From NCBI GenBank assembly GCA_964016885.1, contig OZ024744.1, forward strand, positions 69,750,001 through 69,814,000: a DNA stretch of 64,000 nt, read 5' to 3'. The notes under the pieces were generated by a model, which saw only the letters and a program-made list of their open reading frames with translations, was not told the origin of the DNA and ran no database searches. The position numbers and the translations under genes are program-made. This DNA comes from Eledone cirrhosa (lineage: Eukaryota). This document shows, piece after piece, positions 5,893-6,602 of this stretch. Positions within the stretch are counted from its first letter, which is position 1; every line of letters begins with the position of its first letter.

Positions 5893-6602
5893 ATATGAAA
5901 AAGTTTGTCCTCATCAGTGGCCATCCAACCGTCGTAGGCATTTCTTCGCTTTAAAGGCCATATACCTCAGGTTGGTGCGAGCAACGGCTAAAAAAAGTCG
6001 TTGGGACACGTAAATAAGGGGGACGCTAGGGTAAACGAACAAAATGGTTTAAGCAGCAGAAAGTGATGAAGAAGGAAACAAGTCCCAGATTTCTATGAAT
6101 ATAAATTCGGTGGAATCGTGAACGAGAGAATAAAGACCATCAAACCTGGTTGAAATGTGAGCAAGGAAGGAATTTCGCACAGGTCTAACGGGAGGAAGAA
6201 GGGGTCTGGTCTGCGAATTCGGTAAACATAAGTTCTGTGAAGTCGCAGACGAGAGAGAGAACAAAAATTCATACCGGCTTGGCCAAGTGTCCGCGAGAAA
6301 AGGATTATGGACAGGTCAAACGGGAAGAAAGGGGAGGAGGAGAGGTAGTGACAGAGAGTGAGTGAGTGAAAGGTGAGGAAGAGGCTAACAGAGAGAGAGA
6401 CTGCTAGAAAGGGTAAAGACACAAAGAACGAAACAGACTGGTGGCAGCGGAGGAAAAAATATATGTGTAAATATGATAATAATGGAGCTGCGGCGCTGCA
6501 AATGGGTTACATATGAAAAAGTTTGTCCTCATCAGTGGCCATCCAACCGTCGTAGGCATTTCTTCGCATTAAAGGCCATATACCTCAGGTTGGTGCGAGC
6601 AA
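5893..6602 (-). repeat. Family F partial tandem (618-bp period) carrying the permuted hammerhead-like motif (5907-6007; truncated copy 6525-6602)
   Basis: Direct repeat 5893-5984 = 6511-6602. Flanked by (TA)n. Structurally homologous to family G. Confidence 0.7.

Follow-up and report, generated by a model that had tools for sequence, protein, structure and literature searches.

A predicted hammerhead ribozyme variant of S-G-C block order, combining a four-way junction with a k-turn, in a tandem repeat of Eledone cirrhosa

Hammerhead block orders, Naiads, and retrozymes

Hammerhead ribozymes can be split into three blocks, C, G, and S, whose circular orders correspond to types I-III, as described by Eckert et al. 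in 2023 (PMC10085705). In that account, the non-circular order SGC was validated as a ribozyme, and the order CSG more weakly, the latter being represented by only two sequences, which are alike and come from metagenomes. Non-circular types are reported there to be absent from any known organism's genome, with the exception of one GCS candidate. A second system is provided by the Naiad group of Penelope-like elements, which, according to Craig et al. in 2021 (PMC8557442), target (TA)n and form 5′-truncated partial tandems. These elements are described as having no canonical hammerheads, while some of them keep the core in forms termed 'HHR_core' or 'HHR_half_core'; the cephalopod Naiads are considered to have been inactivated long ago, and (TA)n targeting is attributed to Neptune elements as well. 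A third system consists of the animal non-LTR retrozymes, for which mobilisation by Penelope-like elements and circularisation by a host ligase have been proposed (Cervera and de la Pena 2020, PMC7229834); a recent search by Li et al. (2026, bioRxiv 10.64898/2026.07.22.740005) was limited to type I motifs.

Here, we analysed a 64,000-nucleotide stretch of Eledone cirrhosa DNA (the window), in which runs of (TA)n and (TG)n as well as fragments of transposons are abundant. A repeat family in it, called Q below, carries a motif that is, judged from its sequence, a real and conserved variant of the hammerhead and a predicted ribozyme; its blocks follow the SGC order, and a four-way junction is combined in it with a predicted k-turn. 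The SGC order itself was known before, and what appears to be new is the occurrence of SGC-order hammerheads in an animal repeat and in Naiad tails. In the literature searched, in which few subscription journals were represented, no report was found that links non-circular or SGC hammerheads with Naiads, octopus, or cephalopods.

The repeat and the architecture of its motif

The Q insertion is a partial tandem in which a 5′-truncated copy is followed by a near-full copy, and it has the following parts.

5893..6602, minus strand: whole insertion (family Q), 1.15 units of a 618-bp monomer, inside TA/TG microsatellite
5875..5896, unstranded: (TA)n at the 3′ end of the element, the junction running through a CATAT overlap
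6603..6729, unstranded: TA/TG microsatellite at the 5′ end of the element, read from the sequence
6008..6524, minus strand: monomer body, pyrimidine-rich, without a Pfam-matching ORF
5906..6008, minus strand: complete hammerhead motif of S-G-C order with four-way junction and k-turn (copy Q1), from descriptor and pairing
6525..6602, minus strand: second motif (copy Q2), 5′-truncated, with core, stems I and III, helices c and d, and k-turn present

A first-pass annotation of 5893..6602 had described a 618-bp period, a complete motif with a truncated repeat, and a body rich in pyrimidines on the motif strand. The period is confirmed by the repetition of 5893-5984 at 6511-6602, in which the offset is 618 and 91 of 92 bases are identical, the sole difference being at 5950/6568. 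Q1 is entire, as described, its motif extending over 6007-5907, and Q2 breaks off at 6602 within hairpin b and lacks most of this hairpin in addition to the 5′ strand of helix a; pyrimidines account for 360 of the 517 body bases on the motif strand (70%). Within Q1, the elements of the motif are arranged as listed below.

5911..5917, minus strand: block C with core CUGAUGA, from sequence and descriptor
5941..5944, minus strand: block G with core GAAA, from sequence and descriptor
5960..5962, minus strand: block S with U16.1-A17 (triplet AUA), the cut being predicted at 5961/5960 by analogy with hammerheads
5918..5960, minus strand: stem I (pseudoknot), 5960-5956 pairing with 5918-5922
5937..5966, minus strand: stem III, 5966-5962 pairing with 5937-5941, with one G-U that is A-U in most reads
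5945..5981, minus strand: helix c (pseudoknot), the putative stand-in for stem II, 5980-5977 pairing with 5946-5949
5906..6008, minus strand: helix a, an arm of the four-way junction, 6008-6004 pairing with 5906-5910 immediately after CUGAUGA
5982..6003, minus strand: hairpin b, an arm of the four-way junction, eight pairs including one A-C
5925..5975, minus strand: helix d, bracing stem I and helix c at their far ends, 5975-5970 pairing with 5925-5930
5931..5969, minus strand: predicted k-turn linking stem III to helix d, from the sequence pattern as compared with the definition in PMC5061560

Read 5′ to 3′ on the minus strand, the motif starts with the a strand, hairpin b, the c strand, the d strand, UGA, a strand of stem III, and UA, which leads to the cut site. 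The stem I strand then follows, with a 5-nt linker (5955-5951), the c partner, GAAA, and the stem III partner, and the 3′ part is made up of six bases, the d partner, the stem I partner, CUGAUGA, and the a partner. All core elements of a hammerhead, namely CUGANGA, GAAA, and UH at the cut site, are found in Q1, and the core is flanked by stems I and III with five pairs each and with A15.1-U16.1 present; a sixth pair of stem I forms in a related family of the window, called G, and in many reads. The same cut site was recovered as in the first-pass annotation, which had proposed a pseudoknotted hammerhead-type motif on the minus strand with cleavage between 5961 and 5960, and to which the SGC topology, the four-way junction, and the k-turn are now added.

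The ordinary stem II, which usually starts with G10.1-C11.1, is absent in Q1, where G faces A. The strand that follows CUGAUGA and the strand that precedes GAAA do not pair together, and each of them pairs with a separate upstream strand, so that helices a, b, and c would meet with the core in a four-way junction. In an alternative register, a one-pair stem II is possible, which would be G-U in family G and A-U in many reads. In the fold that we infer, helix c could stack on the core in the place of stem II, the short linker could join stem I and helix c at their far ends, and the k-turn could bend stem III back, while helix d would brace stems I and c and thereby replace the usual contact between loop I and loop II. 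The k-turn pattern comprises a 3-nt bulge (5936-5934), G5933/A5932 set against A5967/G5968, and C5931 opposite U5969. In the definition of a standard k-turn (Huang and Lilley 2016, PMC5061560), a bulge of three bases likewise precedes a G-A and an A-G pair, the whole lying between two helices, and C-G is the first pair of the C-helix in both the standard form and that of Q, which is predicted from sequence alone.

Some pairs of Q1 are imperfect. The two C-A oppositions reported earlier on the minus strand are both present, one in hairpin b (5998A-5987C) and one at the junction end of helix c (5981C-5945A), and an A-A at the other end of helix c (5976/5950), which is A-U in Q2, is added to them; four good pairs remain in this helix. 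Decay of Q1 is plausible in view of its mismatches, and these may also make this copy slow.

Compared to type SGC, as exemplified by the HRIMA-1 motif and its variants (PMC10085705), the Q motif has the same S, G, C order and the full core, and it also has a short linker (5 nt) from stem I to the strand before GAAA and a helix uniting stems I and II. This helix, d, has six pairs, two of which are double changes, and is wired to helix c, not to the 3′ arm of block C. In contrast, the published type SGC shows an ordinary uninterrupted stem II, where Q has a four-way junction, and in Q a k-turn joins stem III to the brace; furthermore, type SGC was described from environmental sequence, whereas Q is a repeat of an animal genome. 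The terms 'kink' and 'k-turn' do not occur in the main text of PMC10085705, and the literature search found neither a validated hammerhead with a four-way junction at the position of stem II nor a report of a k-turn inside a metazoan hammerhead. Due to the junction in the place of stem II, we file the Q motif as a variant that would work like type SGC and not as a member of HRIMA-1.

Covariation, variants in reads, and chance

A second family in the window allows the pairings to be compared.

43073..44395, minus strand: family G, in which a homologous 513-bp monomer is repeated about 2.6 times and three motifs are complete, between (TA)n runs

Both families lie between TA runs as 5′-truncated partial tandems. 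Their bodies had been described as sharing only short blocks, which is an understatement, as they align lengthwise with a z-score of 8.7 against whole shuffles and 6.5 against shuffles of 50-nt blocks (none of 200 scored as high) and share a 48-nt block at 87.5% identity. Homology along the whole monomer indicates that Q and G are one lineage rather than independent arrivals at the same structure. The longer unit of Q is roughly accounted for by an internal duplication of ~127 bp in its body (6065-6204 and 6192-6334, 66%). Between Q and G, both sides have changed in 9 of 34 pairs (three in hairpin b, one in helix c, two in helix d, and three in stem I) with the core unchanged, whereas controls with a slid register gave 0-2 double changes; the covariation rests on two independent sequence types plus the read variants. 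The earlier suggestion that structure is under selection is in agreement with these data. In addition, two pairs of stem III vary only between Watson-Crick and G-U when read on the minus strand, and the k-turn pattern is present in Q, in G, and in the read variants.

Fifteen public runs were listed for the sequence, with no RNA run as a holder among them, which carries no information on expression; four were compared at 80% likeness to the window element, and X6 and X8-X12, of small share, did not enter the comparison. This placed 2703 contigs of organism A (run X1), 638 of which are at least 99% identical to the Q stretch, 6351 raw DNA reads of the same organism from another study (X13), together with 22 contigs of organism B and 5 of organism D. 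Q was thus rightly regarded as belonging to a class of elements and not as a one-off, given thousands of contigs in organism A, relatives in B and D, and matching Naiad tails. Joints from 6517 to 5911 in eight DNA reads show that head-to-tail copies exist elsewhere. In the raw reads, near-fixed changes that keep the fold were observed in stem I, where 5921 (77/77 and 209/211) and 5957 (202/202 and 394/397) turn C-G into U-A, co-occurrence being scored position by position and not as linkage on one molecule. Changes at 5939 convert the G-U of stem III to A-U, those at 5923 provide an extra pair of stem I, and those at 5920 result in G-U unless the partner changes too. With those at 5934 and 5936 the bulge of the k-turn becomes AAU, and the change at 6549 converts the pair that follows to U-U, so that the strand reads AAUGAU. 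The contigs from organisms B and D have several of these changes in common with the reads of organism A. Among the 40 variants listed out of 187, none falls in CUGAUGA, GAAA, UA, or the G-A pairs of the k-turn.

On the minus strand, 5945 is U in most reads (118/148 and 244/382), and a base is inserted directly after CUGAUGA in the second copy in 34 of 61 reads, which implies that the C-A at 5981/5945 in Q1 is not the norm of the family. Neither the partner position 5981 nor the two positions of the hairpin-b C-A appear in the 40 variants listed of 187.

It could be argued that the helices arose by chance or belong to a plus-strand structure, and that the element is a plain satellite or a SINE-like repeat. 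For the 110-nt region of Q, nested folding is indeed more stable on the plus strand, where both C-A oppositions read as G-U, with −28.9 kcal/mol (z-score −1.51) as compared to −25.4 kcal/mol (z-score −0.44) on the minus strand, although neither z-score is strong and pseudoknots are ignored by this calculation; with the same restriction to nested pairs, family G folds better on the minus strand (−23.0 against −19.2 kcal/mol). A search of the whole window with Rfam at the gathering score returned no match, which is another point on the side of this explanation. To our knowledge, the Rfam models do not include the S-G-C block order. On the other side, a descriptor of this order, composed after the motif had been seen, matched five times in the window, always on the minus strand and always in the two Q copies or the three copies of family G, and in 200 block-wise dinucleotide shuffles it produced 0.025 core matches per window and no strict match. 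Together with the nine double changes, the core words on the minus strand, and the G-U pairs of stem III, which in both families exist as pairs on the minus strand only, this leaves the explanation by chance or by plus-strand folding largely refuted and very improbable.

Several other candidates came up in the scans. A profile made from the five copies of Q and G found no further convincing copy in the window, the next match having an E-value of 0.35. Pattern matches were obtained at six metagenome and ten viral loci, and the 15 of these 16 that were inspected (all but L002) did not show the helices; because of this, and as none of the 16 loci had a blastn match to the window, they were treated as chance. 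An HDV-like reading of either strand, compared by eye with the HDV consensus, was set aside, as the invariant bases are accounted for by the hammerhead core. Two CTGATGA sites at 45381 and 46380 lie 999 bp apart in near-identical context and match neither the SGC nor the type I pattern.

Relation to Naiads, mobilisation, and neighbouring elements

Of the 54 Naiad consensi in File S5 of PMC8557442, 53 (all but Naiad_Cmel) were inspected by eye over their final ~300-350 nt, and some of them over a longer stretch. Non-circular hammerheads were recognised in 16 of these 53 ends, 10 of them SGC and 6 CSG, a count that is unscored and includes close relatives that are not independent. The SGC examples, in which stems I and III are paired, are three near-identical Acropora elements, Naiad-3_Chem, Naiad-2_Movir, Naiad_Ptep, Naiad_Smim, Naiad_Obim, Naiad_Ovul, and Naiad_Esco; the CSG examples are all from nematodes (Naiad-1, -2, and -3_Nbra, Hcon, Hpol, and Asuum) and appear by eye to have a bracing helix. 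The a-b-c junction was found in the Acropora and Clytia elements and in the two Octopus elements. In these, the base after CUGANGA cannot pair with the base before GAAA, which favours a true four-way junction. The k-turn was seen by eye in the two Octopus elements only, with an identical AAUGAU strand in Naiad_Obim. The 37 ends left uncounted include Bfor, whose stem I has two pairs, Sdum, whose core is altered, and four Darwinula elements, in which G stands before C and no clear cut-site block was seen; the remainder showed no such motif within the ~300-350 nt of each consensus. The bivalve and hemichordate Naiads (CGi, Sglo, Olur, Tgra, Pmar, Skow, and Pfla) have another conserved, structured-looking 3′ motif, which has no hammerhead core.

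Naiad_Obim and Naiad_Ovul share with Q, as far as can be seen by eye in their consensi, the order of the helices, the junction, the type of loop on hairpin b, and the k-turn, and their motif lies ~75-90 nt from the 3′ end. Naiads in general also have the (TA)n target, 5′ truncation, and partial tandems in common with the Q element. However, Q has a 618-bp unit and no endonuclease or reverse transcriptase ORF, and its primary sequence is not recognisable by eye as that of these two consensi; for this reason, and as the comparison was made by eye, Q is likened to them by architecture and not by descent. Without an ORF for an N-terminal GIY-YIG endonuclease and reverse transcriptase, Q does not qualify as an autonomous Naiad. 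The first-pass annotation had pointed to autonomous Penelope-like ORFs next to the motif as something to look for, and none was found there; a Pfam search of 211 non-repetitive frames of the window detected no Penelope-like or GIY-YIG protein, and its sole RVT_1 match (54175-54840) lies 47 kb from the Q element. Like the non-LTR retrozymes (PMC7229834; bioRxiv 10.64898/2026.07.22.740005), Q is a non-coding tandem repeat with one hammerhead per unit, but those are defined by type I (CGS) hammerheads, from which the SGC order of Q departs. Taken together, Q is probably a non-autonomous, retrozyme-like retroelement bearing a non-circularly permuted (S-G-C) hammerhead of Naiad design.

The mobiliser of the Q element is rather likely to be a Naiad. 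Tandem transcripts would be cut into 618-nt monomers, which a host ligase would perhaps close into circles, as has been suggested for the retrozymes of animals (PMC7229834), and the endonuclease/reverse transcriptase of a Naiad could copy the RNA in trans into (TA)n, producing partial tandems like Q. The 3′ end of the insertion is located ~68 nt beyond the predicted cut site, which fits a circular or an uncut tandem template better than a linear monomer; that the element makes circular RNA is nevertheless only tentatively proposed.

The fold could be as described and the mobiliser a different one, such as another Penelope-like clade (Neptune or Penelope/Poseidon), a LINE, or local satellite spread, in which case the likeness to Naiads would reflect a captured or convergent motif. 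The window holds no autonomous partner, canonical type I hammerhead repeats are also found among its (TA)n runs, and PMC8557442 credits Neptune elements, too, with (TA)n targeting; its description of the cephalopod Naiads as long inactive, set beside the many copies of the Q family at 99% identity or more, weakens the choice of a Naiad as partner. A different mobiliser is still improbable, considering that the junction, hairpin loop, and k-turn match the two octopus Naiads in detail and that non-circular hammerheads recur in Naiads from several phyla.

Another conceivable reading is that the fold derives from a hammerhead and does not cleave, or depends on a protein for cleavage, and serves as a signal of recognition or packaging for reverse transcriptase or for a k-turn-binding protein of the 15.5K/L7Ae type. 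The presence of a junction in the place of stem II would agree with this, as would the end of the insertions ~68 nt past the cut site, which implies that cutting does not define the 3′ end; moreover, only one of nine predicted retrozyme dimers of Xenopus was cleaved in vitro, as reported in bioRxiv 10.64898/2026.07.22.740005. However, Q, G, the listed read variants, and the Naiad tails have all retained the UH site and the bases of catalysis, and a pure binding signal would not need them. Natural hammerheads with a one-pair or mismatched base of stem II are also described as still cleaving (PMC3088659). A fold without cleavage of its own seems quite unlikely, and the predicted ribozyme of the Q family is likely to cleave, while for the Q1 copy itself the chances of cleaving well appear about even.

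A broader reading, put forward with less than even confidence, is that non-circular hammerheads are the normal ribozyme of much of the Naiad clade, with the SGC order in the elements of cnidarians, spiders, and cephalopods and the CSG order in those of nematodes. In the cephalopod form, which would be active, the junction would replace stem II, and the k-turn brace would possibly be clamped by a host protein of the 15.5K/L7Ae family; this form would drive abundant non-autonomous elements that make circular RNAs of 500-600 nt in animal cells. If this is true, non-circular permutations, until now environmental only (PMC10085705), would gain a named host and a biological job, and the apparent lack of hammerheads in Naiads would be explained, since the descriptors allowed circular permutations only. 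A hammerhead core within a four-way junction and with a k-turn brace would then represent a new scaffold and a possible solution to a point of geometry raised by Eckert et al., namely how the brace helix is connected with stem III at its far end, and the k-turn would offer a natural handle for the control of cleavage by proteins.

Hammerheads of the canonical kind are also present in the window. A scan for type I returned six, the Q motif not being among them, at 3683, 4789, 4964, 25620, 32963, and 41383, and two further members of this dispersed family were noted by eye at 46789 and 48778. Their stem I has 8 pairs, stem II is long, and stem III is tiny and nearly palindromic; they often occur as inverted pairs and would be of the dimer-cleaving type as judged from the stem architecture. 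A 491-bp tandem repeat forms two inverted arrays at 27480-30309, with related sequence at 42393-42967 and 50481-50876, and its unit carries a minimal type I hammerhead with palindromic stem III, so that an ordinary non-LTR retrozyme appears to lie beside the permuted one. More hammerhead-like or inverted-repeat elements containing CTGATGA are located at 684-725, 21768-21873, 23953-23959, and 32254-32346.

Other repeats were observed in the surroundings. A long near-perfect inverted repeat (6643-7032) adjoins the 5′ flank of the Q element, and several such palindromes occur across the window. A broken non-LTR retrotransposon with RVT_1 and zf-RVT matches, which we take to be probably L1/Tx1-like, spans 52655-57474, and its ORF1-like piece is seen again at 58724-59527. 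The interval 14674-18499 contains two fragments resembling Spin-doc zinc-finger transposases (14674-15558 and 17831-18499), which enclose a further transposase-like piece, and a 3-kb tandem array based on GGT/GAT/AGT, with 18/36/54-bp periods and extreme GC skew, occupies 35310-38364.
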